From an uncultured Acidobacteriota bacterium (lineage in GTDB: Bacteria; Acidobacteriota; Vicinamibacteria; Vicinamibacterales; JAKQTR01), in NCBI GenBank assembly GCA_963843385.1, contig CAWJJY010000007.1, forward strand, positions 1,974,028 through 2,038,027: a stretch of DNA of 64,000 nucleotides, written 5' to 3'. Made by a program: the position numbers and the translations under genes. Below, piece after piece: positions 17,511-56,533 of the stretch (positions are counted from its first letter, which is position 1; every line of letters starts with the position of its first letter). The notes under the pieces were generated by a model. It was not told where the DNA came from and did not search any database. It saw only the letters and a list, made by a program, of their open reading frames with translations.

Positions 17511-17513
17511 GGC

Positions 17514-25235: not shown

Positions 25236-25259
25236 CGGGACCTTTCGAGGGTCGATCGC

Positions 25260-38777: not shown

Positions 38778-41700
38778 AACTAGCCGATGTCAGCGTGCGG
38801 CGGCCGGTCTTCGCGGTCATGATGACCGCCGCCTTGATCGTCATGGGATGGTTCTCGTACCGGCAGCTCGGCCTGGACCTGATGCCGAAGACCGACTACC
38901 CGGTCGTCTCCGTCGGGACGTCGCTGTCGGGCGCGAGCTCGGAGGAGATCGAGACCTCGATCACCAAGCCGGTCGAAGAAGCGGTCAACAGCATCGCGGG
39001 CGTCGACGAGCTCAGCGCCAGCTCGAGCCAGGGCAACTCCCGCGTGTCGATCACCTTCGTCCTCGAGCGCGAAATCGAATCGGCGACGCAGGACGTGCGC
39101 GACAAGGTCGCCGGGATCATGCGCCAGTTCCCGCGGGACACGCTGCCGCCGACGGTCAACAAGATGGACCCCGACTCCTCCCCGATCCTGACGATCCTCG
39201 TCTCGGGTCAGCGATCGCCGAAGGAGATCTCCCAGATCGCGGACAAGAACATCAAGCAGGTGATCGAGACGATCGAGGGCGTCGGGGGCGTGTCCCTCCA
39301 GGGCGATCGGCGCCGCGAGATCCAGCTGCTGCTCAACGCGGACCGGCTGAACGCCTACAACCTCAGCGTCGACCAGGTTCGGAGCGCCGTCCAGCGGCAG
39401 AACGTCGAAATCCCCGGCGGCTCGTTCACGGCGGGTGCGTCGGACATCGCGATGCGCACGATGGGGCGCCTCACCAACGTCCGCGACTTCAACGACATCC
39501 TGATTTCCTATCGCGACGGCATGGCGATCCGCTTCGGCGACGTGGGCCGGGTCACCGACGCGATCGAGGAGGTCCGCAGCTCCACGCGGCTGGACGGCCG
39601 GCCGGCCATCTCCCTGATGATCCGGAAGCAGACGGGTACCAACACCGTCGACATCGTCGACCGGGTCCTGGCCCGCCTCAAGCGCATCGAAGGCACGCTC
39701 CCGCCGGATATCACGATGCAGCCGATCCGCGATCAGTCGCGGTTCATCCGGAAATCGTTCGAAGAGATCAGGATGCACCTGCTCTTCGGCGGGCTGCTGG
39801 CCAGCTTCGTCGTCTTCCTCTTCATGCGGAACATCCGGCTGACCGTGATCGCGGCGCTCGCGATTCCGACGTCGATCATCGGCACGTTCTCCGTGATGAA
39901 GGCGCTCGACTTCACGTTGAACAACATGACGATGCTGGCCTTATCACTGGCCACGGGCATCGTCATCGACGATGCCATCGTCGTGCTGGAGAATATTTTC
40001 CGATACATCGAGGAGAAGAAAGTCTCGCCCAAGGAGGCGGCGATGAAAGCCACGGCCGAAATCGGCCTGGCTGTCATGGCCACGACGCTGTCGCTGGTGG
40101 TCATCTTCCTGCCGGTGGCCTTCATGACCGGTCAGGTCGGCCGCTACTTCTACAGCTTCGGCATCACCTCGGCAGCGGCGATGCTGATTTCGATGTTCGT
40201 CTCCTTCACGCTGACCCCTGCGCTCTGCTCCTGGTGGTTGCGCTCGGTCGACGAGCGCGTCGGCGCCCACCGTGCGACGAAGTCCCAGGGCGCGTACGCC
40301 TTCGTCGATCGTTCCTACGGCCGGATGCTGGAGTGGTCGCTCCATCATCGCGGCTGGATGCTGGGGATCGCGGGCGTCGTGGTGGCGTCGGTCGTCGTGC
40401 TGTTCCCGTATGTCGGCAAGGAACTGGTACCCGACGACGATCAGAGCGAGTTCAGCATCAACGTCAGGCTGCCGCAAGGGACGAGCTACGCGCGCACTGA
40501 GGAATACATCAGGACCATCGAGGCCGACCTGCGCGACCCGCAGAAGCTCCCCGAGGTCGCCATGATCCTGGCCAGCGTCAACCCGGGCAGCGCAAATTTC
40601 TACATCGGGCTGAAGCCGCTGGAAGAGCGAACGCTGTCGCAGCAGGAGCTGATGCGGCGTGCCCGCGTGATGATGCGCAAGTACCCGGGCGCCCGTATCG
40701 GCGTCTCGGGGGGCACCGACCTCTCGGGCGCGTCGAGCGGCGGAGGCCGGGGCGGCGGAGGCGGGGGCTCGAACCGGCTCAGCGTCCTCATTCAAGGGCC
40801 CGAGATTGAGCAGCTGCAGATTTACGTGACCAAGCTGATGGCGCTCGTGCGGACCATCCCCGGCGTGGTCGACGTCGACTCCAACTTCGAGCCGACGCAG
40901 CCGGAAGTCCGCATCATGACCGACCGCGCGCGCGCGGCGGACCTGGGCGTGTCGATTGATTCGCTGGCGTCGAGCATGCGGTCGCTCGTCGGCGGCGAGG
41001 AGGTCGGCAAGTTCAAGGACGGCGACGACCAGTTCTCGGTGAAGCTGCGGCTGGACCAGCAGTTCCGGGACGACCCGGCGGGGCTCGGCTCGCTGCTGAT
41101 TCCGGCTGCGAGCGGCAAGACCGTCCGGGTCAGCGACGTCGCGCAGCTGGTGATGGACCGCGGGCCGGCCACCATCCAGCGCTACAACAGGCAGCGGCAG
41201 ATTTCCGTCAGCGCGAATCTCGACAAGGTACCGCTCGGCGACGCGGTTGCCGCGGCGCGTGTGAAGGTGACCGAGCTGAACATGAAGCCCGGCTACCAGG
41301 CCGTGTTCGGCGGAAGCGCCAGGACCCTCGACGAAGCGTCCAGCGACTTCGTCATCGCGATCTTCCTGGCCGTCGCGTTCATCTACATGGTGCTCGCGTC
41401 GCAGTTCAACAGCTTCATCCACCCGCTCACCATCATGACGGCGCTGCCCCTCAGCCTTCCGGCCGGCATCCTGTCGCTGATGGCCTTCGGGATGACGATC
41501 AACGTCTACAGCGCGATCGGGCTGATGATGCTGTTCGGCATCGTCAAGAAGAACTCGATCCTGCAGGTCGACTACACCAACACGCTGCGGGCCGAGGGCC
41601 TGGAACGCCACGAGGCGCTGATGGCCGCCAATCACGTGCGATTGCGGCCCATCCTCATGACGACGATGTCGATTGTCGCCGGCATGCTGCCGATCGCGTT

Positions 41701-41941
41701 CGGCAAGGGCGCGGGATCGGGCTCGCGCGCGTCGATGGCCGTCACGATCATCGGAGGCCAGATTCTCTGTCTGTTGCTCACGCTGCTGGTCACGCCGGTC
41801 GTGTATTCGTATTTCGACGACCTCCGCGAGCTCAAGATCACCGACCTCGTCAGGGCGCTCGCTAACCGGATCCGCGGCCGTAAGGCGGTCAAGGCGGCGC
41901 TGCCGGGCGCCCAGCCGACGCCGGCAACGCCGATCGAGTAG
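38774..41941 (+). CDS. RND efflux transporter permease (AcrB/HAE-type, 12 TM)
   Basis: VRRPVFAVMMTAALIVMGWFSYRQLGLDLMPKTDYPVVSV, LSLATGIVIDDAIVVLENI, FGIVKKNSILQVDY. GTG 38774 overlaps the adaptor gene stop (GTGA). Confidence 0.9.
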   Translation: MKLADVSVRRPVFAVMMTAALIVMGWFSYRQLGLDLMPKTDYPVVSVGTSLSGASSEEIETSITKPVEEAVNSIAGVDELSASSSQGNSRVSITFVLEREIESATQDVRDKVAGIMRQFPRDTLPPTVNKMDPDSSPILTILVSGQRSPKEISQIADKNIKQVIETIEGVGGVSLQGDRRREIQLLLNADRLNAYNLSVDQVRSAVQRQNVEIPGGSFTAGASDIAMRTMGRLTNVRDFNDILISYRDGMAIRFGDVGRVTDAIEEVRSSTRLDGRPAISLMIRKQTGTNTVDIVDRVLARLKRIEGTLPPDITMQPIRDQSRFIRKSFEEIRMHLLFGGLLASFVVFLFMRNIRLTVIAALAIPTSIIGTFSVMKALDFTLNNMTMLALSLATGIVIDDAIVVLENIFRYIEEKKVSPKEAAMKATAEIGLAVMATTLSLVVIFLPVAFMTGQVGRYFYSFGITSAAAMLISMFVSFTLTPALCSWWLRSVDERVGAHRATKSQGAYAFVDRSYGRMLEWSLHHRGWMLGIAGVVVASVVVLFPYVGKELVPDDDQSEFSINVRLPQGTSYARTEEYIRTIEADLRDPQKLPEVAMILASVNPGSANFYIGLKPLEERTLSQQELMRRARVMMRKYPGARIGVSGGTDLSGASSGGGRGGGGGGSNRLSVLIQGPEIEQLQIYVTKLMALVRTIPGVVDVDSNFEPTQPEVRIMTDRARAADLGVSIDSLASSMRSLVGGEEVGKFKDGDDQFSVKLRLDQQFRDDPAGLGSLLIPAASGKTVRVSDVAQLVMDRGPATIQRYNRQRQISVSANLDKVPLGDAVAAARVKVTELNMKPGYQAVFGGSARTLDEASSDFVIAIFLAVAFIYMVLASQFNSFIHPLTIMTALPLSLPAGILSLMAFGMTINVYSAIGLMMLFGIVKKNSILQVDYTNTLRAEGLERHEALMAANHVRLRPILMTTMSIVAGMLPIAFGKGAGSGSRASMAVTIIGGQILCLLLTLLVTPVVYSYFDDLRELKITDLVRALANRIRGRKAVKAALPGAQPTPATPIE

Positions 41942-42134: not shown

Positions 42135-43334
42135 CTACTGCCTGAAGATGCCGAGGCGCTGGAGACCGCTGACCGCGTTGAAGGTCACCAGCAGTTCCAG
42201 CCGACGGGCGTTCGGAATCGCGATCGTGTTGTGCGACGCCTGCGTGCCGAAGAACTGGAGGCCGAACTCGGGCGTGAGCTTGAACGTGGCTGTCTCGAAG
42301 AAGCGCTTGCCGCGAAAATATCGGTCCCCGTTCGTCGTGGGTGCGAGGTTGTCGATATCGGCATATCCGAGCCCCGCCGCAAACCGCCTGGTGATGGCCT
42401 TCTCGCCGTAGATCGCGTACCCGGAACCGCCCTGCGGGTCACGACGAAAGTACTGCTCGAACCTGACCATGTCCACGATGACGAGCGGCAGTGTCCTGGC
42501 CACGACCGCGTACCGGAACGTGGGCACCCCGGTCAGCCTCGAATACTCGGCTGACGCAGTCAGCTGCCTGGTGACGTTCTTGGTCGCGAAGAACTGGACG
42601 TAGTTCGGTTCATCGCTCAGCCGCCTGTAGCGGTTCGTGATGCTCGGGCTCGTCAGGTCGCCGAGGTACGCCGAGGTCACGCCAAACTCGTCGAGGAAGA
42701 AACCCTTCGGGCGTTTCACGCTCACACGTTCGCCGACCAGATACCCGTCATTGTCGTAGGTGGTGATCTCGGTGGACTCGCCGCGCATCACGCCGAAACC
42801 GCCGATGCTGATCTCGACGCCCGGCACCGGAACGGCCGCGACGTAGAACTGCTTGAGATACCAGTGATTGAAGCTGTCGCCGGTGCCGATGCCGGTGTTG
42901 TTCCAGCCGCCCGTGAACGTATTGCCAGTGGCGTAGACCGCATTGACCGTATAGCGCCCCTTCGGATCGAACTTGAACCGGCCCTTGAACTGGCCGGAAT
43001 CCTGGATCTGGCTGGTCGTCCGGACATCGCGGCTGTTCACGATCGTACGCTGGCGGAGAGAGACGGTTCCGATCTGCAGTTCGAACCAGCGGCTCAGCCT
43101 CGACGGCTTGGGCTTGGCCTCAGCATCCTTCCCTTTCTTCTGGGCCTTCTTGTCATCCGCGTTTCCGGTCACCGACGACGGGTTGGCGGCGACGCTGCTC
43201 TGAACCTCCGCCTGCGTGGTCTGACTCGAACGCTGCCGCGCCAGGAGACTCGAGGGAACCAGGACCAACGCCACGATCGAGATGGTGGCGATCTGGACGC
43301 GGGTAGCAATTGCCGGGCGGGCGGTTGACGTCAT
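42135..43334 (-). CDS. Putative outer-membrane beta-barrel / porin-like protein (family not recognised)
   Basis: GGAGG lies before ATG 43334. The hydrophobic N-terminus (RVQIATISIVALVLVPSSLLA) is followed by a Lys-rich linker. The rest alternates amphipathic strand-like segments rich in G/Y/F/T (RYTVNAVYATGNTFTGGWNNTG, GYAIYGEKAITRRFAAGLGYADI). Confidence 0.5.
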   Translation of the reverse strand: MTSTARPAIATRVQIATISIVALVLVPSSLLARQRSSQTTQAEVQSSVAANPSSVTGNADDKKAQKKGKDAEAKPKPSRLSRWFELQIGTVSLRQRTIVNSRDVRTTSQIQDSGQFKGRFKFDPKGRYTVNAVYATGNTFTGGWNNTGIGTGDSFNHWYLKQFYVAAVPVPGVEISIGGFGVMRGESTEITTYDNDGYLVGERVSVKRPKGFFLDEFGVTSAYLGDLTSPSITNRYRRLSDEPNYVQFFATKNVTRQLTASAEYSRLTGVPTFRYAVVARTLPLVIVDMVRFEQYFRRDPQGGSGYAIYGEKAITRRFAAGLGYADIDNLAPTTNGDRYFRGKRFFETATFKLTPEFGLQFFGTQASHNTIAIPNARRLELLVTFNAVSGLQRLGIFRQ

Positions 43335-43772
43335 CGGGGGCCTCCTTCGGCTGCTGGGGCTGACAGCGAACATCCACTGCAGTGGCCGGGTGCCGCCGAA
43401 GTTGAGCACGTGGCCACGCCCGTTCAAGCCGGTTCGACGAAACACCGATTGCACCGGCCTCGCCATCCTTGCGGCCGGTCCGGAACCCCGCGCCACGACC
43501 GCGCGACCGGGTCCCCCTCTTGGTCCCAGAGACCGATGAAGGCGTTTCCTGTGATGATAGCCCGAATCGTGTCCTGCTTCGCGCAGGTCCGGCCGGCATG
43601 CCCCGCGCGGCTGGATCCGGACGTGCCGTGAGCGGTCGTGCGGAGCCTGGATGCGGCGAGGTAGGTGCGGCCGCCTCGTCGAGTCACGGATATCGCGTCC
43701 CGAGTCAGAGCGGCGGCGAGCGGCGCATTCACGCCCGGGTGCGATCGAATCGGCGAGCGTGCGAGCAGGCGG

Positions 43773-46028
43773 TCATCCTGCCGCGCGCAGCCCGGCCGCC
43801 TGCACGCTGCCGAGCGTCGTCAGGTTCACGACGTCCTGCACGGAGTTGCCGTACTGCAGGAGCTGAACGGGCAATCGTGTTCCCGTCAGGATGGGGCCGA
43901 CCAGCACCGTGTCACCCACCGCCTGCAGCAGGTGCATGGCCATGTTGCCCGACTGCAGGTCGGGAAACACCAGGACATTGGCGTCCTTGTCGAGCGCGGA
44001 GAATCCGAAGTATCGGCTCCGAATCTCGCGGTTGACGGCCGTGGCGATCTGCATCTCGCCGTCCACGGCCAGGCCCGGAGAGCGTTCCTTGACGATTTCG
44101 GTCGCCCGCCGCACCTTTCGCGCAAACGGGTGGTCGACCGAGCCGAAGTTCGAGAACGACAACATCGCCACGCGGGGCTCGATGCCCAGCAGCCGGACCA
44201 TGCGCGAGGTCAACAGTGCCGTCTCCGCCAGGCCGTTCTCGTCGGGTTCGATGGCGACGGCGCAGTCGGCAAGGAAGAACACGTCCTTCGGCAGCAGCAC
44301 CATGTAGTAGCTCGACACGCGGCTGATCCCGGGCGCGGTCCCGATCGTCTCGAGCATCACACGCAGCGAGTCCGCGTAGTGGTGCTCGATGCCGCCGACG
44401 AGCAGGTCGGCGTCGCCGCTGTGGAGCATCATGGCGCCGAAATACTCCGGCCGACGGAGGCGCTGCTCCGCCGTGGGGCGCATCACCCCGCGCCGGCGCC
44501 GCTGGCGCACGTGCTCGTCGACATATGCATCGCGTTTCGGACTGCGGGAGGGATCCACGATGAGCAGGCCGGACGGGTCCAGCCCGGCGCGAACGAGGCC
44601 GGCGCGAATCTCGGCCTCGTCGCCGAGCAGGACGGGCCGCGCCACGCCTTCGTCAGCGAGGATGGCGGCGGCGCGCTGGATGATCTCGGAGGTGCCGTCG
44701 GCAAAGACGGTCCGAAGGGGTTCCTGCCTCGCCCTCACCATGAGCCGCCGCATCATGCCCGTGCCCGTTCCAATCCTCACGGTCAGGCTCTCCTGGTACG
44801 CCACGTCTTCGACCGGCCGGCCGGCCACGCCGTCCTTCACCGCCTGGCGTGCAACCGCCGCGGACTGGCGAACGAGGATCCGGGGATCGATGGGTTTCGG
44901 CAGCAGGTACTCCGGCCCGAAGCTGAGTCGTTCGTAACCGTACGCCCGGCTGACTTCGTCGGCCACTTCGTCGCGGGCCAGATCGGCGAGCGCCCTCGCG
45001 GCAGCCATCAGCATCCCGTCGGTGATCCGGGCCGCCTGGACGTCGAGGGCTCCGCGGAAGATGTACGGAAAGCTCAGGTGATCGACAATCGCGTTGGGAA
45101 AGCGCGTGAGGCTGGTCGCCACGATCACGTCGCGGCGGCTTTCTCGCGCGGACTCGTAGCCGATCTCAGGTTCGGGCGTCGCCATCGCCAGCACGATGGG
45201 GAACCGCGCCATCGAGCGGATCATCTGCTGTGAGAGCACGCCGCCGGCGGACGCCCCGATGAACACGTCGGCGCCCCGCAGCCCGTCCTCGAGCGCGCGC
45301 GGCGCATCCGCGCGTGAGAAGGCCCGCTGATGAGGTCCGATGTCCTGCCGGTCGGGATGCACGAGGCCGTTGAGGTCGTAGAGCCGGAGCTGTTCGGCCT
45401 TCGCGCCCATGCCGATCAGGAATCGCGCGCAGCCGATGCCGACCGTGCCCGCGCCGCAGATCACGATGGCCGCGTCGGCAATCGTCTTCTCCGCGAGATC
45501 GAGCGCGTTGAGGAGCGCGGCCGCCATCACGACCGCCGTGCTCTGGAGGTTCTCGTGCACGACGGGGATGCGAAGGCCCTCGCACAGGCGCGCGTAGATC
45601 TCGAGGCCTTCAGGGGCCTTGATGTCCTTGAGGTCGATTCCGCCGAAGGTCGGCTCGAGCATCTGGACCGTGTCGACGAAGCGGCCCGGGTCCCCGGTGT
45701 CGAGCTCGAGATCGAACACGTCGATGTCGGCCAGCCGCTTGAAGAGCACGGCCGTCCCTTCCTGCATGGGCTTCGCGGCGAGCGGCCCGACGTCCCCGAG
45801 CCCGGGCACCGCCGAACCGTTGGTGATGACGCCGACCAGGTTGCCACGGGCGGTGTACCGGAACGCCGCGTCGGGATCGGCGTGGATGGCGGCGCCCGGG
45901 AAACACGCACCGGGCAGGTAGGCCAGCCGCATTTCGCGGGCGGTGAGGCACGACTTCGTGGTCCGCAGCTCGATCTTCCCGGGCCGATCCGCTTCGTGGT
46001 ACGCGAGGGATTCATCGGGACGAATCAT
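43773..46028 (-). CDS. MaeB-type malic enzyme + phosphotransacetylase-like domain protein, with a divergent active site
   Basis: Overall collinear with NADP-malic enzyme MaeB (YTARGNLVGVITNGSAVPGLGDVG, EPTFGGIDLKDIKAPE, CGAGTVGIGC, ATPEPEI, FPYIFRGALDV) plus a C-terminal PTA-like half. Its ATG overlaps the stop of the giant upstream gene (ATGA). See the findings for the substitutions. Confidence 0.8.
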   Translation of the reverse strand: MIRPDESLAYHEADRPGKIELRTTKSCLTAREMRLAYLPGACFPGAAIHADPDAAFRYTARGNLVGVITNGSAVPGLGDVGPLAAKPMQEGTAVLFKRLADIDVFDLELDTGDPGRFVDTVQMLEPTFGGIDLKDIKAPEGLEIYARLCEGLRIPVVHENLQSTAVVMAAALLNALDLAEKTIADAAIVICGAGTVGIGCARFLIGMGAKAEQLRLYDLNGLVHPDRQDIGPHQRAFSRADAPRALEDGLRGADVFIGASAGGVLSQQMIRSMARFPIVLAMATPEPEIGYESARESRRDVIVATSLTRFPNAIVDHLSFPYIFRGALDVQAARITDGMLMAAARALADLARDEVADEVSRAYGYERLSFGPEYLLPKPIDPRILVRQSAAVARQAVKDGVAGRPVEDVAYQESLTVRIGTGTGMMRRLMVRARQEPLRTVFADGTSEIIQRAAAILADEGVARPVLLGDEAEIRAGLVRAGLDPSGLLIVDPSRSPKRDAYVDEHVRQRRRRGVMRPTAEQRLRRPEYFGAMMLHSGDADLLVGGIEHHYADSLRVMLETIGTAPGISRVSSYYMVLLPKDVFFLADCAVAIEPDENGLAETALLTSRMVRLLGIEPRVAMLSFSNFGSVDHPFARKVRRATEIVKERSPGLAVDGEMQIATAVNREIRSRYFGFSALDKDANVLVFPDLQSGNMAMHLLQAVGDTVLVGPILTGTRLPVQLLQYGNSVQDVVNLTTLGSVQAAGLRAAG

Positions 46029-49000
46029 GACGGCACCTCCACCGACGGGCGCACCCGCAAGGGATGGCGGTCGGTCGCCTCACGCCAGACGGCAAACGCG
46101 GACGGAACCGGGCGAACCTGGAGCAGGCTCACGTGCGGACCCTCGAACCCGAACTCGATGTCGAGCGGCGTTCCGTACGCGTGTTCGAGCCGCAAAGCCG
46201 TCTCCACGACCTCGAGCAGTTCCGGATACTCGAGGGCCGGCCGGAGCCGCTGGTGGGCGAGCGTGTCGACCTTGACGGTGCCCTGCCCGAACCGTTCGTC
46301 GTAGACGACGCGCGAGCGTTTGTCGCTCGTCAGGTAGCGGAAGCGCGGCGGGGCGGCGCGGTCGCCGGACTTCGCCACCAGCACGTGGTCGGCCGCCACG
46401 GTCCCCGACACGATGCCTTCGCCGAGCCCGAGCCCGACGTTGATCACCAGCTCGCACGGGTTCGACTGCGCCGCATTGATCGTCTGGACCACGCCTGAGA
46501 CGCGCGACTGCACCATGCGCTGCACGATGACACCGCCGTGCGGGCACCGGCGGTCGTGGCGCTGCAGGCGGTCGCGAATCGCGCGCTCCGTCCAGAGCCC
46601 CGCCCATGCCCGTGTCAGCACCTCCAGCACCCGCGTCTCGCCGCGGATGAACAGAAAGGTCTCGAACTGGCCGGCCCGCGTCTCGCGCTCAGTGTCCTCC
46701 TCGAGCCCGGACGATCGGATGGCGACCGAGTCGGCGCCGAGATCGCGCCACGCGTGGCTCACCTCGACAGCCACGCTGGCCGGGAGGGTCATCCGCCGCC
46801 AGATGTCCTGGATTTCCGACGCCATCCACGTCGGTGTGCGGTCGGACCGATCGAGCACGGCTTCGATGGCCCGCCGCACGGTGCCGCCGGCACCGGCCGG
46901 CACCGCTTGCCGCGCCTCGAGGTCAAACCCGCTGTCCAAGGCCTCCTGAAACGCGCGGTCGGCGATGGCGAACCATCCCGGGATCGCCGCGCCGCCGAGA
47001 ACGCGCGCGGCCTCCGCGAGGTTGGCTGCCTTGCCCCCGACCAGCTGCTCGAGATCGATCCCGCCGTCGCGCGGGACGATGATGAGTCGGTTCGAGAGGG
47101 GCCCCCCTCCAGCCTCCGCGCGGACTCGAGCCGCGGTGGCCACGCGCTCCTCGGCGCCATCGCCAATTCCCTCGATGCCAAGCACCGCGTTCAGGCGGTT
47201 CAGCACAACCCCCAGCCGGCGCGCCGAGCCGAGGCCGGTGTCCGCGAGGATGTCTGCCCGCATTGCGTCCCGGAGTCGCAACAGCCGCTCGGCGGCCAGC
47301 GCGTCGAAGTCGTTCGAATCGCCGATGCCCAGCAGCGCGGGCTTCAGCCCGCATCCTTCGACGGTGGCCTGGACCTGCCGGCAGGACTGCTGTAAGTCGA
47401 ACACCGCCTGGCGCAGCGCCAGCACATCGTGCGCGGTTGTCGCGCGTGGAATCTGCGCGATGGCCCGTTGCCGGGCGTCGGCGAGTTTGCGGGAGAGTGC
47501 GGTTCCCACCTGCGTGACGGACTCGTGCGCGAAGCGTCCGACCTTCGAGTTGCCGATCAGCAGCGACAGCAGCGGCACGAGGTCTCCGCCGCTGCCGCCA
47601 GCGACTGACGCCGCCTCGCCGATCAACAGTTCCTCGACCCCATAGCGGGCCAGGCCCGGATCGGCGATGCGCGGAACGAGCCGTTCGAGCTGGTGCCGGC
47701 TGTGAAGCCGCCGGCCACGCTCTCCAAGCACTTCTTCGGGGCGTGCGCGAGAGAGGCTCTGGCACGCATCGGCGTAGAGGTGGAGCGCCGCGTGAAACGT
47801 GCACGCCAGCGGATCGTGGCCGAGCAGCCGGAGCAGTCCCTGGCCCGCGTCGAGCACCACGAGATCGCCGTCGCGGACGACGTCGTCGACCTCCCGGATG
47901 TCGACGAACTTCACGACCTGGTAGCCGGCGGTCTCGGACGCCTGTTCGCGATACCTGGAGCGTCGACAGGTCAGGCTCGTGTCTCCGCCGGCGGACCGGG
48001 CCCAAGTCCCTTGCACGATGACGGCCGGCCGGCCCGACTCGACCGCCACCAGACCGAGGTGGCTGAGGATTCCTCCGCCGGTAGACACAATCCCCGTCGC
48101 CGCGTGCAGGAATGGTGCATCGGCGGGCTCGAGCCGCTCGGTGACGAGCACACTCCCGGCGCAATCCTCCGGCCGGCGCCCGGCGGTGCCGATTCGAACC
48201 AGGCCCGTGGCGCGTCCGGGCGAGGCGGCCGTCGCGCGAACCAGTCGCTCGCCCGGAAACGCCGCGGCAGGCGGCCGCGGGTGCGGCGTGCGGAACCGGC
48301 GCCGGATCTCCTCTACGGCCGTCCCGTCATCGTCGGCATGCGGCGCCACGGCATCGCCCAGGTAGTTGGCTCGACGGAGCCTGGCAAACAGATCGGCCCC
48401 GTCGCACAACGGGCTGTCCTGCCACTCCCCTCCCGGCTCGGCGCGACGCCGGTAGAGCGCGCCATCCAATGCCGCGCACGCAATCCGTGCCACGCCCTCG
48501 TGGTCCCGCAGCAGAAAGACGCCCAGCGAGGCCCTTCCGAGCGAGAGTGAGGCGTGCTGCACGTCGTACGCGTTGATGCTGCCAATCGTCCGGAAGCGGA
48601 CGCTGCGATCGACGAGCGAGATCAGCCTGGCCACCTGCGCGGCCTGCGCCAGCACCGGCGAGGGCGAGTCCAGGATCTCCACCAGTCGGTCGACCGCGTG
48701 GACGGGTTCGAACACGTCCGGGCTCGATCCGACGGGCCCGTCGGATGTCTCGACCAGCTCGCCCTGGGCGACCGCGGAGCGTAAGGGTTCGAGAATGAGG
48801 GCCTCGAACGGCACCTGCCGCAACAAGCTGGGCACGGCGGCCGGATCGGCCCGCGCGATATTCAGTTGCTCGAGCACGGTCGTCACGTATTCACCGCAGG
48901 CCGCAGGAAACTCGACGGTGAACCGGTCCCGGTATGCACCCTCGCCTGTCCAGCGGACTTCCCGGACTCCCTCCGCTCCTTCTTCGATCGAAACCAGAAT

Positions 49001-51181
49001 GCCGGCCCGGTCCTTCGTCAGGAACTGTTGAACCGGCAGCGCACCCCAGTTCTGGTAGAAATCGGCCCAGGCCGACGCGACCTCCCGCCGGGCCTCGGCC
49101 GGGAGCGCCAGCGACGCAACGGTCCAGTCAACGTCCATCAAGTACGGCACCAGGCCGAACAGCCTTTTCGCCTGGGACACGAGATCGTCCATGCAGACGG
49201 CGCGCTCCTTGTCGTAGCGCGCATGAATGCGCGTCGAGTCGATCTCGACGATGAAGTCGAGCCGTTCGAACATGAGGCGAATGGCGTCGAGCGACGGGCA
49301 GGGGTGCCAGGCCAGTTCGTTGTTGCTGACGCCGAGGTACTGGAGGTCGATCATCCCGCCGCGCAGCGGCGGAGAGTAGTCGACCCTGATGAACGCCGGG
49401 TGATTTCGGAATCGCGCGAAATAGTGGACCTCGTTGCCGTAGCAGAAGACGCTGACCGTCGGAAACGTGCGATGCCCGTGCAGCAGCTGCCGGGCGAACG
49501 CGTCAACGATGAGCGCGACGGAGTCCGGCAGCGCCGGAGCCGTGTCGCCTCCGCCGGTCTCGTCCAGGTCGACGAATTCGAGAGGACGCGCGATCTCGAG
49601 TGGCCGCGACGGAGTCACGACGGCGAAATCGATCGTGCGCGTCGCTCGCGGCCCGGACGGCACCAATCCAAACGCCAGCTTCAGCCCCCGCTGGTGGAGA
49701 TAGCGCTTCAGGCCGTGGAGCGTGTGAATGTCGCGCGGCCCCGCGGGGTCCTCGAAGGCCTGCGCCATTCGACAGGCCTCGATCGGAACCTCGTCTCCAT
49801 CGCACCCGGCGAGCTCCCGCTCGATTCGCGACGTGATGTCGTCGAACACGCCGGCGAGGACCTCGGCTTCATCCCGGTGCGAGCTGAACATGGCGCCGAA
49901 GTCGGACACCAGTCGATCGAGCGTGTCGAAGACCTTCCGAAGGCGGAGACGAGTCAGCGGCGCGAGGTCCAGCAAGTCCGACAGCAGGTCGGCGTGGACG
50001 ACGTTGTAGGCCCTGAACCGGGCGACCGCGTCGCGCGCCGCGAAGGTTTCCGATGGGTCGGCCGCCTGGCCGCCGACCGCGACGACGATGGTCCGCTCGA
50101 ACACGCGGCGCACGCCGGGCCCGCGTTCGAGGATCGACGCTTCGGAAGGGGCGAGCACCAGCGGAAACGATCCCGCCACGCTGAGGCCCACGAAGGTCCG
50201 GGCCTCGAGCCCCATGTTGATACGGCCCCAGCCGAGCGCCGCCACCAGTTCCCTGAACCGCGACGCCCCACACTCGCGCTCGACACGCTGGAACGAGGCG
50301 AGCCCGTCCTTCGTGTCAACCAGGATGCGAGCCCGAATCAGGTCCTCGTGCGTGGCACGCGTGAAGGCCAGCGAGGGCCCGAGCACGGCGAAGCCCTCGT
50401 CGCCGAGCACGCGCCTGGCGAGGTCGTCTGAGGGTGGCCGCCCGTCAAGGTCGAGCAGGCGGGCCGCGAGGCGCTGAATGCCCGGCGTCTGACCCCGCTC
50501 GATCAGATTGGCTTCCGCGGCCGCCGTTACGCCCTCGACACCAGCGCCGCCATCCGTCCCGGCCCGGGCCCTGACGATCTGCCGGATCACCCGAAGGTCG
50601 GCGTCGCCAGAGAGTCCGCTGCCCTGCTGGTCGAGGCGATCGGCGAGAGCCTGGAGGACGGGATCCGACACGATGAGGGTCCCGGCATCGGCCGCCCGTG
50701 CGATGGCCTCGAGTGCGCGCCTGGCCAGCCCGGAGTCGTCGAGCGACAGCAGGGGCGCGAGGATCGGCCACGGATCGGACACGCTCTCGGCGAACTCTTC
50801 GAGCAGCCCAAACACGGAGGCAGCCACGGGGCCGGCGCGCCGGCCAAGCAGTGGCAGCAGTCGAGCGAATGACTCGCGGCTGGCGGGAAGGGCCCACGAC
50901 GCGCGCTGCCCTCTCACCTCGGCACAGGCGGCGTCGACCGTTTCCTGTCGAGGGAGATAGGACGAGCACGCCGCCGCAAGGGCACGAAGGGCGTCGTCGA
51001 GCAGATCACAGGAGAGGGATTCGCCAGCCGGCCGAGCGGCAGGCGGATGATCCGCCGGGCCCGATTCAACCTCTGGCACCGCCCGAAACCCCCGGGGGCC
51101 ACGCTGTCGTTGATGAACCGGTCCGATATGCGGGGGACGGGGGCCGTAGACACGAGCAGTATAGACCAGCCGCGAATCCAC
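46025..51181 (-). CDS. Giant (1,718 aa) PEP-utilising-enzyme-type phosphotransferase/dikinase-like protein: unknown N-terminal ~975 aa, phosphohistidine swivel domain, helical linker, C-terminal PPDK_N ATP-grasp domain
   Basis: Swivel domain, aa ~980-1060: GRATGLVRIG...VLVTERLEPADAPFLHAATGIVSTGGGILSHLGLVAVESGRPAVIV, with His1041. ATP-grasp, aa ~1366-1695: LVGGKAANLAEAARVLG..IPGWF, VAIRSSGLEEDTERETRAGQFETFL, VIVQRMVQSRVSGVVQT, NVGLGLGEGIVSG, PLDIEFGFEGPHVSLLQVRP. No PEP/pyruvate TIM-barrel motifs seen. Start is GTG 51181 and is uncertain. Confidence 0.8.
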   Translation of the reverse strand: MDSRLVYTARVYGPRPPHIGPVHQRQRGPRGFRAVPEVESGPADHPPAARPAGESLSCDLLDDALRALAAACSSYLPRQETVDAACAEVRGQRASWALPASRESFARLLPLLGRRAGPVAASVFGLLEEFAESVSDPWPILAPLLSLDDSGLARRALEAIARAADAGTLIVSDPVLQALADRLDQQGSGLSGDADLRVIRQIVRARAGTDGGAGVEGVTAAAEANLIERGQTPGIQRLAARLLDLDGRPPSDDLARRVLGDEGFAVLGPSLAFTRATHEDLIRARILVDTKDGLASFQRVERECGASRFRELVAALGWGRINMGLEARTFVGLSVAGSFPLVLAPSEASILERGPGVRRVFERTIVVAVGGQAADPSETFAARDAVARFRAYNVVHADLLSDLLDLAPLTRLRLRKVFDTLDRLVSDFGAMFSSHRDEAEVLAGVFDDITSRIERELAGCDGDEVPIEACRMAQAFEDPAGPRDIHTLHGLKRYLHQRGLKLAFGLVPSGPRATRTIDFAVVTPSRPLEIARPLEFVDLDETGGGDTAPALPDSVALIVDAFARQLLHGHRTFPTVSVFCYGNEVHYFARFRNHPAFIRVDYSPPLRGGMIDLQYLGVSNNELAWHPCPSLDAIRLMFERLDFIVEIDSTRIHARYDKERAVCMDDLVSQAKRLFGLVPYLMDVDWTVASLALPAEARREVASAWADFYQNWGALPVQQFLTKDRAGILVSIEEGAEGVREVRWTGEGAYRDRFTVEFPAACGEYVTTVLEQLNIARADPAAVPSLLRQVPFEALILEPLRSAVAQGELVETSDGPVGSSPDVFEPVHAVDRLVEILDSPSPVLAQAAQVARLISLVDRSVRFRTIGSINAYDVQHASLSLGRASLGVFLLRDHEGVARIACAALDGALYRRRAEPGGEWQDSPLCDGADLFARLRRANYLGDAVAPHADDDGTAVEEIRRRFRTPHPRPPAAAFPGERLVRATAASPGRATGLVRIGTAGRRPEDCAGSVLVTERLEPADAPFLHAATGIVSTGGGILSHLGLVAVESGRPAVIVQGTWARSAGGDTSLTCRRSRYREQASETAGYQVVKFVDIREVDDVVRDGDLVVLDAGQGLLRLLGHDPLACTFHAALHLYADACQSLSRARPEEVLGERGRRLHSRHQLERLVPRIADPGLARYGVEELLIGEAASVAGGSGGDLVPLLSLLIGNSKVGRFAHESVTQVGTALSRKLADARQRAIAQIPRATTAHDVLALRQAVFDLQQSCRQVQATVEGCGLKPALLGIGDSNDFDALAAERLLRLRDAMRADILADTGLGSARRLGVVLNRLNAVLGIEGIGDGAEERVATAARVRAEAGGGPLSNRLIIVPRDGGIDLEQLVGGKAANLAEAARVLGGAAIPGWFAIADRAFQEALDSGFDLEARQAVPAGAGGTVRRAIEAVLDRSDRTPTWMASEIQDIWRRMTLPASVAVEVSHAWRDLGADSVAIRSSGLEEDTERETRAGQFETFLFIRGETRVLEVLTRAWAGLWTERAIRDRLQRHDRRCPHGGVIVQRMVQSRVSGVVQTINAAQSNPCELVINVGLGLGEGIVSGTVAADHVLVAKSGDRAAPPRFRYLTSDKRSRVVYDERFGQGTVKVDTLAHQRLRPALEYPELLEVVETALRLEHAYGTPLDIEFGFEGPHVSLLQVRPVPSAFAVWREATDRHPLRVRPSVEVPS

Positions 51182-51228
51182 GGGGGATTACCTGAACCGA
51201 GCCCTCACCGCGTCACCGGCCGCGGCGA

Positions 51229-51251
51229 GCCGCTCGACTTCGACGAGCGGC
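51229..51251 (-). other. Hairpin (GCCGCTCG-7 nt-CGAGCGGC) in the 85-nt gap between the HlyD-family gene and the giant gene
   Basis: 8-bp perfect stem with no U tract. It could be a partial terminator, an attenuator or an mRNA-stability element. Confidence 0.3.
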
Positions 51252-51266
51252 GTGTGCTTCGCAGAG

Positions 51267-52493
51267 CTATCGCGCCGCCTGGATTTCGCGCAGCGTCACT
51301 CGAGTCCCGTCGGCGATCTGGTCGCCCGGATGGACGATGACCTGGTCGCCGGATTTCAGGCCGCCGAGCAGCTCGGCGGTCACGCCATTGCGCTGGCCAA
51401 TGGTCACGGGGCGAAGCCGCGCGCGACCGCTCTCGACCGAGAAGGCCGCCCATCGATCACCCTGTCGGAAAAGCGCGCTCGTGGGGATCTGCAGGGCGTC
51501 GGTGCGCTCCCACGTGATGATGCGAGCTTCGACGCGGTAGGCGTCGCCGAGCGTCCGCCACGCCTCGTACGGATCCTCAAGTTCGACCACCACCCAGACG
51601 CGCTGTTCCTCGACACCAAGGGCCGAGACCTTCAGGAACGCCGAGGGTTCGACACGCCGGACGCGCCCCTTGAGCGGGCTGGCTCCCCCCCACCGGTCGA
51701 TGAGCGCCGGCATGCCCGGTCGCATGCGCACCGCATCGGTTGACAGGAAGTCGGCGATGACCTCGAGCGCGGCGGGATCGGCCACCTCGATGAGCGGCTC
51801 TCCCTGCGCGACGACCGATTCGCTCTGCCGAATGCGTTTGAGAACCACGCCGTCAATCGGGGACCTCACCCCGACCGATTTCGGTGCACTGGCTGCGGTC
51901 ACGCCGCTGCCAGGCTCGACCAGCGTCGCGCGAGCAGTCTCCAGGTCGTGAGCTGCGGCTGCCACGGCCGCCTCGGCTGCCTGCAGCGAGCGCCCCCGCA
52001 CATCGGCCTCGGATGCGGCGGCGGCGCCGGCCTGGCGCGTGGCCAGTCCCTGCTCGACGAGCGACTGCATCCGATGGGCCTCTGACGAGGCAAAGTCGCT
52101 CGAAGCTTTGGCCTGCTCACGCTCGGCCCGCACGCGATCGAGCGTCGCAGAAGCCGCCTGGACCCGAGAGATGGACTCGGCGCGGGTCCTCGCGTCGAGC
52201 AGCGGCGGCGCAGCCGGCATCAGAGTCGCCAGGACCGTCTTGCCGCGCGCGACCGGATCGCCGGGCTCGAGTTCGATGCGCAACACCCGTCCGGCTACCG
52301 GCGCAGACACCACGAACCGTTCCCGGACGCGCGTGACCCCTTCATGGTCCAGGGTCACCCGCATCGGTCCCGACGTGATCGTCGCCTGATCGACCGCACT
52401 CGCACGCGGCAGCAGGGCTACGACGAGCGCTGCGAGCCCAACCAGCCCGATGACGGTCCAGATGATGACTCGTCGTCTGGTCGCGGTGGTCAT
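51267..52493 (-). CDS. HlyD/MacA-family periplasmic adaptor of an ABC exporter
   Basis: N-terminal TM anchor VIIWTVIGLVGLAALVVALL. Lipoyl-like block: VSAPVAGRVLRIELEPGDPVARGKTVLATL. A coiled-coil follows, then SPIDGVVLKRIRQSESVVAQGEPLIEVAD. Its start lies 3 nt after the permease stop. Confidence 0.85.
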   Translation of the reverse strand: MTTATRRRVIIWTVIGLVGLAALVVALLPRASAVDQATITSGPMRVTLDHEGVTRVRERFVVSAPVAGRVLRIELEPGDPVARGKTVLATLMPAAPPLLDARTRAESISRVQAASATLDRVRAEREQAKASSDFASSEAHRMQSLVEQGLATRQAGAAAASEADVRGRSLQAAEAAVAAAAHDLETARATLVEPGSGVTAASAPKSVGVRSPIDGVVLKRIRQSESVVAQGEPLIEVADPAALEVIADFLSTDAVRMRPGMPALIDRWGGASPLKGRVRRVEPSAFLKVSALGVEEQRVWVVVELEDPYEAWRTLGDAYRVEARIITWERTDALQIPTSALFRQGDRWAAFSVESGRARLRPVTIGQRNGVTAELLGGLKSGDQVIVHPGDQIADGTRVTLREIQAAR

Positions 52494-52496
52494 GTC

Positions 52497-54869
52497 TTAC
52501 TCCCTCGTCTTCAGGACTTCCACCAGGTCGAGCCGGTCGAGCCGGCCGCGGACGGCAATGGCCGAGATCGCCGTCGCGGCGGCGACGGTCAGGGCGGAGA
52601 ATGCGTAGGCGCCCGGGCGAACCACCAGCGGGAGCCTCCACAGCTCGGTGTCCATCGCGCCCCGCATCGATTCGACCATCCCGAGGCCGATCAGCAGGCC
52701 GGCCGGGATGGCGACGATCGTGAGAAGCGCGAGCTCACCGAGCAGGATGTAGGAAATCTCGCCTCGGCTGAAGCCGATGACCCGAAGCGTGGCCAGCTCG
52801 CGGCTTCGCTCCGACAGCGAGATGCGGGCGTTGTTGTAGACCACGCCGAAAGCGATGATCGCGGCAAACAGCACGAAGATGGCCAGCATCTGGTTCATGA
52901 GCGCCCCCATCGACTCTTGAAGGCTTTCGCGGGCCGCGCGTTTGAGCAACACGCTTCCGACTCGCGGGGTGGCCTTCAGACGCCGATACAGCTCATCTGT
53001 CTGCATCGCATCAACCTGCAGGTACGCTCCGGAGACGGTGTCTCCCTCCTCCATGAGTCGGTGGAGCGCGGCGAGGTTCATATAGACGTTCAGGCCCATG
53101 TATTCGTCGACCAGGTCGGCAACCGGGAGCGTCCTGGACGCACGTCCGCCTTCGAGAATGTCCACGGTCACGGCGTCTCCGCGCGACACGCCGAGCACGC
53201 GCCCGAGTTTCTCGGAGAGCACGAGGCCGTCGGGCGGAAGCGTGATCACCCGCATCGAGGCGTCGACGACCCGATTCAGGCGCGGGCTGGCGGGAGCGCC
53301 CAGGATCGCCGTGATTCGAGACCGCGCCCCGCTTCGAATTCGGACCGGCACGGCGCGGAACGGCTCGGCGTCGATCACCCCTGGCAGGCGGCGCAGTTCC
53401 TCGGTCGCAGACGACGACGAGGGTTCGACCAGGCTGACCATCACGTCGAATCGCTGGGCAACATCGAATTGCGTGTCCATCAGCATGTCGATTGAGCCGG
53501 TCGCGAAGCTGCCCACGACGAGCAGCGACCCCGCGAGTCCGACGCCGACGACCGACGCCACCGCCCGCCCAGGGTGGCGTTCCAGCGTGCGCACGATCAT
53601 CCGCTCGGGCTCGGGCAGGAATCGTTTCAGTCCGATGCGCTCTGCGAAGCTGACCCGGTACCGCGCAGGGAGCTCCGGGCGCATCGCTTCCGCGGGCGGG
53701 AGCTTCACCGCGCGTCCCACGGCGCCGACTGCCGCGAGAACGGCCGACGCGACGCCCACCGCCAGCGCACCGATCAACAAACGCGGCTGCAGACTGTAGA
53801 GCAGAATCGGGAAGTCGAAGAAATCCGTGTAGAGCTTCGTGTAGGCCTTCCCGAGCCACGCGCCAACGCCAATTCCGAGCACGGAGCCGGCCACGGCGAT
53901 GGCGAGACTCCATTTCACGTAGTGCCACGCGACCTCGAAGTTTCCGTAGCCCAGCGCTTTGATCGCGGCTATCTGCGGCCGCTGCACCGTCACGATGCGC
54001 TGCAGCACGACGTTGAGCAGGAACGCCGCCACGCCAAGGAAGATGACCGGGATGATCGCGCCGAAACCCTCGAGCTGCGCCAGTTCGTTCGCCAGGTACC
54101 AGTGAGAGGGCTGCAGGGCTCGCGGCATGGCTCCGATCCCGCCGTAGCCGCTCTCGAGGAGTCGATCGAGCCTGGCCACGACCTCGGCTTCCGACGCGCC
54201 TCGGGTCAACCGCAGCAGGACGCTGTTGAACGCGCCATCCAGGCTGAAGGCGGTCGAGAGCGCCCGGCGTTCCATCCAGAAGACGCCAAAGCGCTTCTCG
54301 TCGGGAATCAGCTCGCCGGGTCGAATCGGATAGACGTATTCGGGCGACAGCGCGAGGCCGACAATCCGCAGCGCGCGGCGACGGCCGTTGATGATCGCGA
54401 CCACTGAATCGCCGGGGCCCAGGCCGTGCGAGCGGGCGAACTTCTCGCTGGCGAGGACCTCGTCGGGCCGCCCGGCCTCGAGATAGCGCCCTTCGCGCAG
54501 GAAGATGTCGCAGAGCACCGGCCGCTCGGGCGCAGGCACCGAGATCAGGCGGCCGACGGCCGGCTCCGACAACCCGGGCACGTCCAGCGTCACGTCGACG
54601 ACGACCCGGGTGTCGACCTGGGCTACGCCGGGAATCTCGGCAATGGTCCCGGCGACCGAGTTCGGGGCACGCTTGAGCGAGGCGAACACGTCGGCGAATC
54701 GATACCGGTCGTAGTAGGTGCGCAGCGTGAGGTCGAGCGCGTCGAAGGTGGAAAACATCGACACGAATATCGAGATGCCAGCCGCCACCACGAGCGCGAT
54801 GGCGACAGCCTGGCCCTTGATACCCCAGAGGTCCCTCACGAGCTTGCGATCGAGCGCCGAGAGCTTCAT
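52497..54869 (-). CDS. ABC transporter permease with two FtsX-like (MacB/YbbP-type) modules
   Basis: From ATG 54869: MKLSALDRKLVRDLWGIKGQAVAIALVVAAG. Two repeats of a large periplasmic loop plus the 4-TM FtsX pattern (IAAIKALGYGNFEV..., LATLRVIGFSRGEISYILLGE...). Confidence 0.85.
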   Translation of the reverse strand: MKLSALDRKLVRDLWGIKGQAVAIALVVAAGISIFVSMFSTFDALDLTLRTYYDRYRFADVFASLKRAPNSVAGTIAEIPGVAQVDTRVVVDVTLDVPGLSEPAVGRLISVPAPERPVLCDIFLREGRYLEAGRPDEVLASEKFARSHGLGPGDSVVAIINGRRRALRIVGLALSPEYVYPIRPGELIPDEKRFGVFWMERRALSTAFSLDGAFNSVLLRLTRGASEAEVVARLDRLLESGYGGIGAMPRALQPSHWYLANELAQLEGFGAIIPVIFLGVAAFLLNVVLQRIVTVQRPQIAAIKALGYGNFEVAWHYVKWSLAIAVAGSVLGIGVGAWLGKAYTKLYTDFFDFPILLYSLQPRLLIGALAVGVASAVLAAVGAVGRAVKLPPAEAMRPELPARYRVSFAERIGLKRFLPEPERMIVRTLERHPGRAVASVVGVGLAGSLLVVGSFATGSIDMLMDTQFDVAQRFDVMVSLVEPSSSSATEELRRLPGVIDAEPFRAVPVRIRSGARSRITAILGAPASPRLNRVVDASMRVITLPPDGLVLSEKLGRVLGVSRGDAVTVDILEGGRASRTLPVADLVDEYMGLNVYMNLAALHRLMEEGDTVSGAYLQVDAMQTDELYRRLKATPRVGSVLLKRAARESLQESMGALMNQMLAIFVLFAAIIAFGVVYNNARISLSERSRELATLRVIGFSRGEISYILLGELALLTIVAIPAGLLIGLGMVESMRGAMDTELWRLPLVVRPGAYAFSALTVAAATAISAIAVRGRLDRLDLVEVLKTRE

Positions 54870-54897
54870 GGCCGCGTTCCGTCCGGGGGGCGGCTGG

Positions 54898-55638
54898 TCA
54901 CCACTTGATCTCGCGCGGAGACAGCCGTGTCGCGTTCCGCCTGTCGTCGACGATGCGTCCGTCGGCGAGCGTGACGACACGGTGAGCCATCGCCGCAATG
55001 GCGGCGTTGTGCGTGATGACACAGACCGTGGTGCCCGTCTCGCGATTGACCCGTTCGAGCGCCTCGAGCACGACCACCCCGGTCGTGATGTCGAGCGCGC
55101 CGGTCGGTTCGTCGCACAGCAGCACGTCCGGCCGCTTGGCGATGGCGCGCGCGATGGCGACCCGCTGCTGCTCGCCCCCCGACATCTGCGCCGGGAAGTG
55201 TTCCGCCCTGTCGTCGAGGCCCATCAGCGCGAGCGCGTCGCCCGGCTGGAGCGGGTCGTCGCAGATCTCGGTGACCAGGTCCACGTTTTCGCGGGCGGTC
55301 AGGCTCGGGATCAGGTTGTAGAACTGGAACACGAAGCCGACGCTGCGGCGCCGGTAGGCGGTCAGCCGCGACTCGTCGGCAGCGGTGAGGTCTTCCCCGC
55401 GAAAGAACACCTCGCCGCTGGTCGGCTGGTCGAGGCCGCCCAGGATGTTCAGCAGCGTGGATTTTCCGCTCCCCGAGTGGCCGAGCAGGACGAGGATCTG
55501 GCCCCGGTCCACGTCGAGATAGACACCCCGCAGTGCGTGCACCAGCACCTCGCCCATCGTGTAGATCTTCGTCACGTCGTGGACGTGGAAGATCGCCGAC
55601 TGATCCGCCTGCGGGTGATCAAGAGATGAAGGAAGCAT
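54898..55638 (-). CDS. ABC transporter ATP-binding protein (MacB/LolD-like)
   Basis: Walker A is [10 protein letters not shown]-loop is VFQFYNL, signature is [14 protein letters not shown], Walker B is [13 protein letters not shown]-loop is VITHN. Confidence 0.9.
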
Positions 55639-56432: not shown

Positions 56433-56503
56433 AGACTGCGTGGTCTACATTATCACGATTCCTGGCCGCTGACCAGAAGTCCTTGTTCCCCTGAGGACTC
56501 GGT

Positions 56504-56533
56504 GTGACTTCCGGGTCGGTCAGGGTGTAGAAT
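56504..56533 (+). promoter_or_regulatory. Candidate promoter GTGACT-N18-TAGAAT for the 56639 gene
   Basis: The hexamers were read directly in a locally AT-richer stretch. The predicted ~100-nt leader contains a T8 run (56617-56624) just before the GGAG RBS. Confidence 0.35.

Follow-up and report, generated by a model that had tools for sequence, protein, structure and literature searches.

A giant dikinase-like protein of reversed domain order and its paired malic-enzyme paralogue in uncultured bacteria

What does a dikinase-like protein of 1,718 residues phosphorylate, and what is it doing next to a malic-enzyme paralogue? These questions are raised by a 64,000-nucleotide stretch of DNA (hereafter the window) from an uncultured Acidobacteriota bacterium (assembly GCA_963843385.1, contig CAWJJY010000007.1, positions 1,974,028 to 2,038,027). 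In it, a giant open reading frame (ORF; 46025..51181, (-) strand) is followed directly by a gene for a 751-residue paralogue of the hybrid malic enzyme MaeB (43773..46028, (-) strand; malic, Malic_M and PTA_PTB domains in Pfam). We give about an even chance to the reading that the two genes form a module in which a His-relay dikinase phosphorylates a small acceptor at the pyruvate/malate node and the MaeB paralogue serves as a subunit. That the giant protein is an ATP-dependent His-relay phosphotransferase is highly probable from its predicted domains, and a functional link between giant and partner appears likely. The novelty of the module lies in the combination of a permuted dikinase, a 650-residue domain without a detected relative and a malic-enzyme paralogue with conserved catalytic replacements.

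Relay domains and orphan core of the giant protein

Both features that define the phosphoenolpyruvate (PEP)-utilising dikinase superfamily at the sequence level, a PPDK_N-type ATP-grasp domain and a swivel (PEP-utilizers mobile) domain with a conserved His, are present in the giant protein. The swivel domain lies at residues ~976-1122 (47816..48256, (-) strand) and was matched by PF00391 at residues 1009-1112 (E = 2.4e-9), by the phosphocarrier domain of PPDK in Foldseek (2fm4, TMt 0.70) and by residues 388-441 of Escherichia coli PpsA in hhalign (75.9%). Its predicted phospho-carrier, His1041, is encoded by the CAC codon at 48059..48061 ((-) strand) in the motif TGGGILSH and is invariant, as are the ATP-grasp motifs, across 62 aligned homologues. 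A first-pass annotation of the window had singled out this residue and codon, and GGGILSH indeed ends at His1041; it had also recognised the swivel domain, at residues ~980-1060, but had drawn it too short, as the domain spans ~979-1121 with an insertion of ~35 residues. This insertion is a two-stranded beta-hairpin (residues 1068-1102, about 47876..47980, (-) strand) that is missing from the Pfam model and present in every family member examined. It could serve as a contact arm to the core of the protein or to the partner.

The C-terminal ATP-grasp domain (residues ~1366-1705, 46067..47086, (-) strand) was matched by PF01326 at residues 1379-1692 (E = 5e-51). Searches of PDB sequences returned PEP synthase and rifampin phosphotransferase (RPH) at E values of 1e-27 to 1e-31, hhalign aligned the domain to residues 10-339 of E. 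coli PpsA (99.8%), and Foldseek matched it to the ATP domain of RPH (5hv6, E = 2e-17, TMt 0.88). Every motif quoted when a PPDK_N-type domain was first placed at residues ~1366-1695 is present, namely GGKAANL (1382-1388), RSSGLEEDT (1489-1497), AGQFETF (1503-1509), VIVQRMV (1551-1557), GLGEGIVSG (1585-1593) and PLDIEFG (1672-1678). Between swivel and ATP-grasp, residues ~1123-1365 (~240 residues; 47087..47815, (-) strand) form an all-helical linker, modelled with high confidence as helices H165-H405 in our AlphaFold2 model of residues 960-1718 (predicted local distance difference test (pLDDT) 87.9, predicted template modelling score (pTM) 0.88, 62-sequence alignment). The linker had been left unassigned, and it found no match in Pfam, PDB sequences or Foldseek.

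The order of the two domains, PF00391 before PF01326, is the one known from alpha-glucan, water dikinases (GWD), as had been proposed from the sequence. PF02896, the PEP/pyruvate TIM barrel, was expected to be missing, and Pfam gave no match to it in the giant protein at E ≤ 1.

The N-terminal half, modelled separately (residues 60-975; pLDDT 88.4, pTM 0.85, also from a 62-sequence alignment), falls into two parts. Residues ~60-320 (50222..51004, (-) strand) are all-helical and resemble an ARM/HEAT-like alpha-solenoid; the best Foldseek matches to the model were weak ones to designed ARM repeats and importins (E = 5.8e-3, prob 0.90). This solenoid is less conserved than the remainder of the protein and is probably a protein-docking module. 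Residues ~321-975 (48257..50221, (-) strand) form a family-specific alpha/beta core, modelled with high pLDDT as antiparallel strands and helices, not as a (beta/alpha)8 barrel. No other part of the N-terminus is as well conserved as the core, which has ~50 invariant residues, most of them polar, and invariant motifs at 487-500 (TLHGLKRYLHQRGL), 579-587 (FCYGNEVHY), 594-613 (HPAFIRVDYSPPLRGGMIDL; HPAFxRxDYSPPLRGGMIDL) and 650-660 (TRIHARYDKER). Because the invariant polar residues cluster in motifs, the core resembles an active site rather than a scaffold, and we presume that it would hold the site of acceptor binding and phosphotransfer.

No relative of the core was recognised. Pfam found no family in it, either at E ≤ 1 on the query or in the cores of 13 homologues, and PADLOC gave no match either. 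Pfam, NCBIfam and PDB-sequence matches to the giant protein were confined to the swivel and ATP-grasp domains, leaving residues 1-975 and the linker without any; those in PDB sequences were to the ATP-grasp domains of PEP synthases and RPH and to the PPDK phosphocarrier domain. PDB sequences gave no match to the core at E ≤ 10 with phmmer or with hmmsearch using the family profile. Foldseek searches of the residue 60-975 model against PDB and BFVD returned only the weak ARM-repeat matches, which probably swamped anything weaker for the core, and no PDB chain, RPH included, scored better than E = 5.8e-3. When the core profile was run against 1.84 billion representative proteins, 227 matches were obtained at E ≤ 1e-3, and the best 150 of the 227 were the giant family or its fragments. 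The first ~975 residues had been said to match no nameable family and to begin with HEAT-like repeats followed by mixed alpha/beta regions; the sequence databases agree with the former and the AlphaFold2 model with the alpha/beta part of the latter, and the HEAT-like start finds a weak counterpart in the Foldseek matches at E = 5.8e-3.

As candidates for the origin of the core, we considered a degenerate TIM barrel and a duplicated ATP-grasp domain. Both were rejected, as hhalign gave 0.1% against E. coli PpsA, TIM barrel included, and 0.4% against the giant protein's own ATP-grasp domain; the former value also agrees with the missing TIM-barrel signature.

Among 5.8 billion clustered proteins, 141 homologues of the giant protein were found. 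The best 120 of the 141 are mostly 1,600-1,790 residues long, with 33-77% identity over more than 90% of the query, and in each of them PF00391 precedes PF01326. When one genome per species was scanned, 54 giant loci were obtained, every one in a metagenome-assembled genome (MAG). Their hosts belong to at least ten phyla and include Acidobacteriota (Vicinamibacteria, Thermoanaerobaculia and Terriglobia), Gemmatimonadota, Eisenbacteria, Krumholzibacteriota, Bacteroidota/Ignavibacteriales, Calditrichia, Planctomycetota, deltaproteobacterial lineages and Hyphomicrobiales. Public names are generic ('PEP-utilizing enzyme', 'pyruvate, water dikinase' or 'hypothetical'), and one member, SPD73417.1 (UniRef100_A0A445MV79), is named 'Phosphoenolpyruvate synthase'. 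Our literature search found no paper that deals with the giant family, mentions the locus tag PITCH_A1880002 or describes MaeB paralogues with altered catalysis.

One divergent relative was seen, a 2,076-residue ORF of an Actinomycetes MAG (L056; JAJCYG010000117.1, 1450..7680, (+) strand). It carries a WD40 propeller where the giant protein has ARM repeats, followed by a core-like region (hhalign 97%), the swivel His, which is thus conserved here too, and a C-terminal PPDK_N domain; the MaeB-like neighbour is missing from its locus. As WD40 takes the place of the ARM repeats in this protein, sequence comparison indicates that core, swivel, linker and ATP-grasp are a conserved enzyme chassis and that the N-terminal repeat module is exchangeable. 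The collection of 5.8 billion proteins held no homologue of this relative, hence no second conserved partner could be traced from it.

The breadth of the family also bears on whether the window gene is real, since an ORF of this size might consist of several genes joined by a frameshift or misassembly, and internal frameshifts do occur in some long-read MAG copies (L030, L062 and L063). The ORF runs without interruption for 1,718 codons (5.16 kb, as first described), and the GC contents of its first, second and third codon positions (0.75, 0.50 and 0.84, in DNA of 68% GC) give a coding-type profile, with the third-position signal extending along the whole ORF. The AlphaFold2 models are confident as single chains, and over 100 independent homologues, full-length at 1,600-1,790 residues, share one domain order in different assemblies and phyla. 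Because so many collinear homologues exist, we reject a fusion or frameshift artefact, a concern noted in the first-pass annotation, and consider its probability negligible.

The three frameshifted copies (L030, 9884..17188; L062, 2807..8004; L063, 2867..7947) probably reflect sequencing errors and not pseudogenes. An open frame of 2,435 residues in L030 might have been taken for a natural fusion of giant and MaeB-like gene; this was rejected, as the frameshift lies inside the giant gene and the true junction is a TCATGA overlap as in the window.

The true start of the giant protein is uncertain on sequence evidence: its first ~40 residues are seldom aligned by homologues, and GTG occurs both at codon 1 (51181), which gives the 1,718 residues, and at codon 35 (51079). 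A promoter and terminator scan of 43300..51600 found nothing.

The MaeB-like partner gene

In the window, the stop codon of the giant gene and the start codon of the partner share an ATGA overlap (46025..46028, (-) strand; junction GTGCCGTCATGATTCGT), which is predicted to be a translational coupling. The same arrangement recurs throughout the family. At all 54 scorable loci, the next gene downstream of the giant, on the strand of the giant itself, is MaeB-like, a co-occurrence that had been suggested for checking. The downstream homologues are 55-91% identical to the window partner at loci with enough downstream DNA. Among the 54 junctions, 27 have a 4-nt ATGA-type overlap, 5 have a 14-nt overlap and 15 have a gap of at most 60 nt, so that giant and partner lie within this distance at 47 of the 54 loci. 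Sampling from the partner's side gave the same picture, with the giant directly upstream in 3/3 loci. No third gene shares this conservation: all-against-all clustering of the ORFs of 57 loci gave only the giant and partner families, and when 86 flanking ORFs were assigned to Pfam families, none of these families recurred in more than three loci.

The partner retains the overall architecture of MaeB, with malic N, Rossmann Malic_M and PTA-like domains; it shares 41% identity with E. coli MaeB, and in PDB it was matched best by the MaeB structures of Bdellovibrio and E. coli (E ~1e-180). It scored 648 bits on the NCBIfam NADP-malic-enzyme model, whose cut-off is 1178, and 51 bits on the Pfam malic domain, on which E. 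coli MaeB reached 112 and a canonical MaeB encoded at another giant locus (L025) 100. In Bdellovibrio MaeB, K107 is the general acid/base, E149 a putative proton donor at the Mg site, D174 the residue that coordinates K107, and Y52 the tautomerisation residue (PMC7902834). In a register checked on the alignment to the Bdellovibrio chains, these correspond to K94, E136, D161 and Y39 of E. coli MaeB.

We compared these positions, in E. coli numbering, across 46 cassette partners and the 120 closest database relatives. Lys94 is found in none of either set (0/46 and 0/120), the cassette partners having Met, Ile, Val, Leu, Ala or Thr instead. Glu136 is replaced by Lys (43/46 and 117/120), Asp161 by Glu or Gln in the cassette partners and by Glu in 119/120 relatives, and Asp162 by Asn without exception (46/46 and 120/120). 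The Asn residues of the substrate/nicotinamide site have also changed: Asn288 is mostly Thr in both sets, and Asn319-Asn320 has become a hydrophobic residue followed by Asp in the cassette partners, with Asp for Asn320 in 119/120 relatives. Relative to Bdellovibrio MaeB, the partner therefore lacks K107 and has Lys for E149, Glu for D174 and Asn for D175. Tyr39 is kept in 109/120 relatives, and Asp137, Lys99 and the Rossmann GxGxxG motif are retained as well. Canonical MaeB copies encoded at three giant loci (L025, L032 and L043; n = 3) keep K, E, DD, N and NN at these positions. In the acetyl-CoA pocket, defined by Y576, T614, N718, Y721, K722, P735 and Q748 of the Bdellovibrio enzyme, the window partner keeps Y, N, P and Q and has T->A, Y->M and K->H changes; R738 is replaced by L.

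As the replacement residues are nearly invariant, the pocket of the partner appears to have been remodelled under selection and not to have decayed. The loss of the general acid/base Lys and of two Mg-site carboxylates, with new conserved residues in their place, leads us to infer that the partner would no longer decarboxylate malate. With metal carboxylates and the Asn pair lost and a Lys gained, the site may be metal-free and may no longer bind a C4 dicarboxylate in the customary manner. The public label 'NADP-dependent malic enzyme' is probably wrong for the whole partner clade (120 relatives). The 'MaeB-like' label first given to the neighbour holds for its architecture, but its active site is systematically altered.

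Known dikinases and the candidate function of the pair

In PpsA and PPDK, the ATP-grasp (PF01326) and carrier-His swivel domains are homologous to those of the giant protein, and a three-site relay would be expected of all three. In contrast to these enzymes, the giant protein has the His domain first and the ATP-grasp domain last, lacks the PEP/pyruvate TIM barrel, adds an ARM-like solenoid, a 650-residue orphan core and a 240-residue helical linker, and is accompanied by an obligate MaeB-like partner. The residues before its carrier His also differ, being L-S-H and not the T-C-H of PpsA, so that no Thr stands two residues before the His, where that of PpsA and PPDK is regulatory. It scored far below the PEP-synthase equivalog cut-offs (177 versus 740 bits for TIGR01418 and 179 versus 598 for NF005057).

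In domain order, and in being of similar size, the giant protein is like GWD and phosphoglucan, water dikinase (PWD), which also have an N-terminal substrate module, a phospho-His domain and a C-terminal PPDK_N-type domain. The phospho-His of GWD is His992, and the homology has been described (PMC12892837). A relay of the water-dikinase type is presumed, by analogy, to be common to both. Whereas GWD and PWD belong to plants and algae, the giant family is found in bacterial MAGs, has a malic-enzyme paralogue as partner and no glucan-metabolism context, and lacks the carbohydrate-binding modules (CBMs) CBM45 and CBM20; Pfam at E ≤ 1 detected no carbohydrate-binding family in the query or in the cores of 13 homologues.

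RPH provides the closest solved ATP-grasp structure (5hv6) and, together with PigC and RedH, is an example of an ATP-grasp/His relay joined to an acceptor domain other than a TIM barrel. Its domain order (ATP-grasp, rifampin-binding domain, C-terminal His) differs from that of the giant protein, which reached 155 bits on the RPH model NF041857 against a cut-off of 999. A relay can also be split over several polypeptides, as illustrated by the HpeI-type stand-alone ATP-grasp subunit (9goj), which matched the giant protein in PDB sequences and in Foldseek. Phenylphosphate synthase is such a split dikinase, with its relay distributed over several polypeptides and accessory subunits. The giant protein, by contrast, has all three relay parts on one chain and a malic-enzyme paralogue as its extra subunit, and no sequence relationship was detected between its core and the acceptor subunits of split dikinases.

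A minority of the neighbourhoods contain genes of related metabolism. On a Desulfobacterales contig (L060), the gene for a genuine large-type malic enzyme of 572 residues (8335..10053, (+) strand; malic and Malic_M without PTA) immediately precedes the giant on the same strand, so that malic enzyme, giant and remodelled MaeB form a row of three genes. On a 1.4-Mb contig (L059), genes for the beta and alpha (biotin) subunits of oxaloacetate decarboxylase lie convergently beside the pair (17339..20353, (-) strand). Citrate synthase is encoded near the pair in L002, canonical MaeB less than 10 kb from it in L025, L032 and L043, and the flanking ORFs include fumarase, citrate transporters and a 2-oxoacid dehydrogenase E1. 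These neighbourhoods are suggestive of a place for the module at the malate/pyruvate/oxaloacetate/PEP node.

It is because of the obligate, coupled pairing with a catalytically replaced MaeB paralogue that we favour a two-subunit enzyme at the pyruvate/malate node. By analogy with PpsA, PPDK and RPH, the C-terminal ATP-grasp domain would bind ATP and load His1041, the swivel domain would shuttle the phosphoryl group to a polar site in the N-terminal core, and the group would there be handed to a small C3 or C4 acid, at a site that the partner may help to complete. With the ARM repeats as its probable docking place, the partner would act as a ligand-binding, regulatory or substrate-presenting subunit. 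The leading candidate reaction would be pyruvate + ATP -> PEP + AMP + Pi, carried out without a classical TIM barrel; pyruvate as the acceptor is nonetheless a doubtful choice. A somewhat slimmer chance attaches to a specific version in which the pair is a PEP-forming or C3-acid-phosphorylating complex, with enolpyruvate held in the putatively metal-free, Lys-substituted pocket of the 'dead' malic enzyme and/or the core, possibly gated by acetyl-CoA or NADP(H). Complex formation, the identity of the acceptor and the role of the partner are putative throughout.

Several observations weigh against a two-subunit enzyme of the pyruvate node. Most neighbours of the pair are unrelated to it, so that the link to the node consists of the ancestry of the partner and a minority of neighbourhoods. 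If the acceptor site were the pocket of the partner, the conserved core would be unexplained, and if it were the core, the need for a partner would be. The acetyl-CoA pocket of Bdellovibrio MaeB is only partly conserved in the partner. All members of the giant family come from uncultured MAGs and hence lack physiology. Because no relative of known function and no acceptor-binding fold was recognised for the core, any acceptor named here is a guess.

The same evidence can be read in other ways. The giant protein might phosphorylate a protein, in the simplest case its MaeB-like partner, much as Enzyme I phosphorylates HPr, and the pair would then be a regulatory device. Interaction scaffolds at the N-terminus (ARM-like here, WD40 in L056), tight translational coupling of the kind typical of stoichiometric partners, and a partner that lacks its catalytic residues yet remains 65-90% identical across phyla would all fit. 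However, a 650-residue core with ~50 invariant polar residues resembles a catalytic pocket, the conserved replacements in the partner's own pocket suggest ligand binding over the part of a passive substrate, and PpsA, PPDK, RPH, PigC/RedH and the glucan dikinases all, to our knowledge, phosphorylate small molecules or glucans and not proteins. We therefore regard a protein kinase as unlikely. Quite improbable, in our view, is a phosphotransferase for xenobiotics or secondary metabolites, whose core would bind an antibiotic or pigment precursor in the manner of RPH or PigC/RedH. Its attraction lies in the top NCBIfam matches of the ATP-grasp domain, which include the PRK06241 'PEP synthase' group, rifamycin phosphotransferase, PigC and RedH, in the place of RPH among the closest solved structures, in the AcrB, HlyD/MacB and TetR efflux genes around the window gene and in the patchy distribution over phyla. 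All NCBIfam scores are far under their cut-offs, though (155 versus 999 bits for RPH), the efflux flank is restricted to this genome and not conserved at other loci, the sole conserved neighbour is a paralogue from central metabolism, and biosynthetic cluster and secondary-metabolite genes were absent from the 86-ORF census.

A polymer dikinase, as a bacterial analogue of GWD, would account for the domain order shared with GWD and PWD and for a large N-terminal region that could hold an extended ligand. The first-pass annotation had proposed an ATP-dependent His-relay dikinase with a possibly polymeric substrate; both domains and the conserved His bear out the dikinase, but the polymer is not supported. 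Pfam showed no CBM45, CBM20 or other carbohydrate-binding module, glycogen and starch genes were found neither in the window nor among the 86 immediate neighbours of the homologues, and the obligate partner is a malic-enzyme paralogue and not a glucan enzyme, all of which makes this reading very improbable. We attach still less weight to an anti-phage conflict system in which a repeat-domain sensor would be joined to an ATP-consuming effector. Swappable ARM and WD40 N-termini on a giant protein, and a sparse spread across phyla that suggests horizontal transfer of a cassette, are features that such a system might show; against it, PADLOC gave no match, the neighbourhoods are of a housekeeping or metabolic kind and not defence islands, and Foldseek against BFVD returned no viral structural relatives.

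A two-gene dikinase module at the pyruvate/malate node would matter beyond this locus. In most bacteria, the pyruvate/PEP/malate node decides which way carbon flows, and its set of enzymes is generally regarded as complete. Should the module make PEP or some other phosphorylated C3 or C4 acid, it would represent a new enzyme architecture for a textbook reaction; if the pair forms PEP, it would provide a second route from pyruvate to PEP, without a TIM barrel. The partner would then clearly exemplify how a pseudo-enzyme of metabolism can be recruited as a subunit. Annotation routinely mislabels the giant gene as 'PEP synthase / pyruvate, water dikinase' and its partner as 'NADP malic enzyme', and for this reason metabolic reconstructions of the uncultured lineages assign to them two activities that may be absent and overlook another.

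Other genes in the window

Directly downstream of the MaeB-like gene, at 42135..43496 ((-) strand), lies a 453-residue ORF that has no Pfam match and is not conserved beside the pair elsewhere. Farther away, ORFs of 734 residues (15306..17510, (-) strand) and 554 residues (24018..25682, (+) strand), both without a Pfam family at 1e-5, and one of 424 residues (56453..57727, (-) strand), without a Pfam family at 1e-3, are candidate genes. The pair is flanked at 51267..55022 ((-) strand) by genes for an HlyD-type membrane-fusion protein and a MacB/FtsX permease, and further efflux genes of the window, for a TetR regulator and an AcrB-type RND pump, lie in 55652..56386 ((-) strand) and 38774..41941 ((+) strand).

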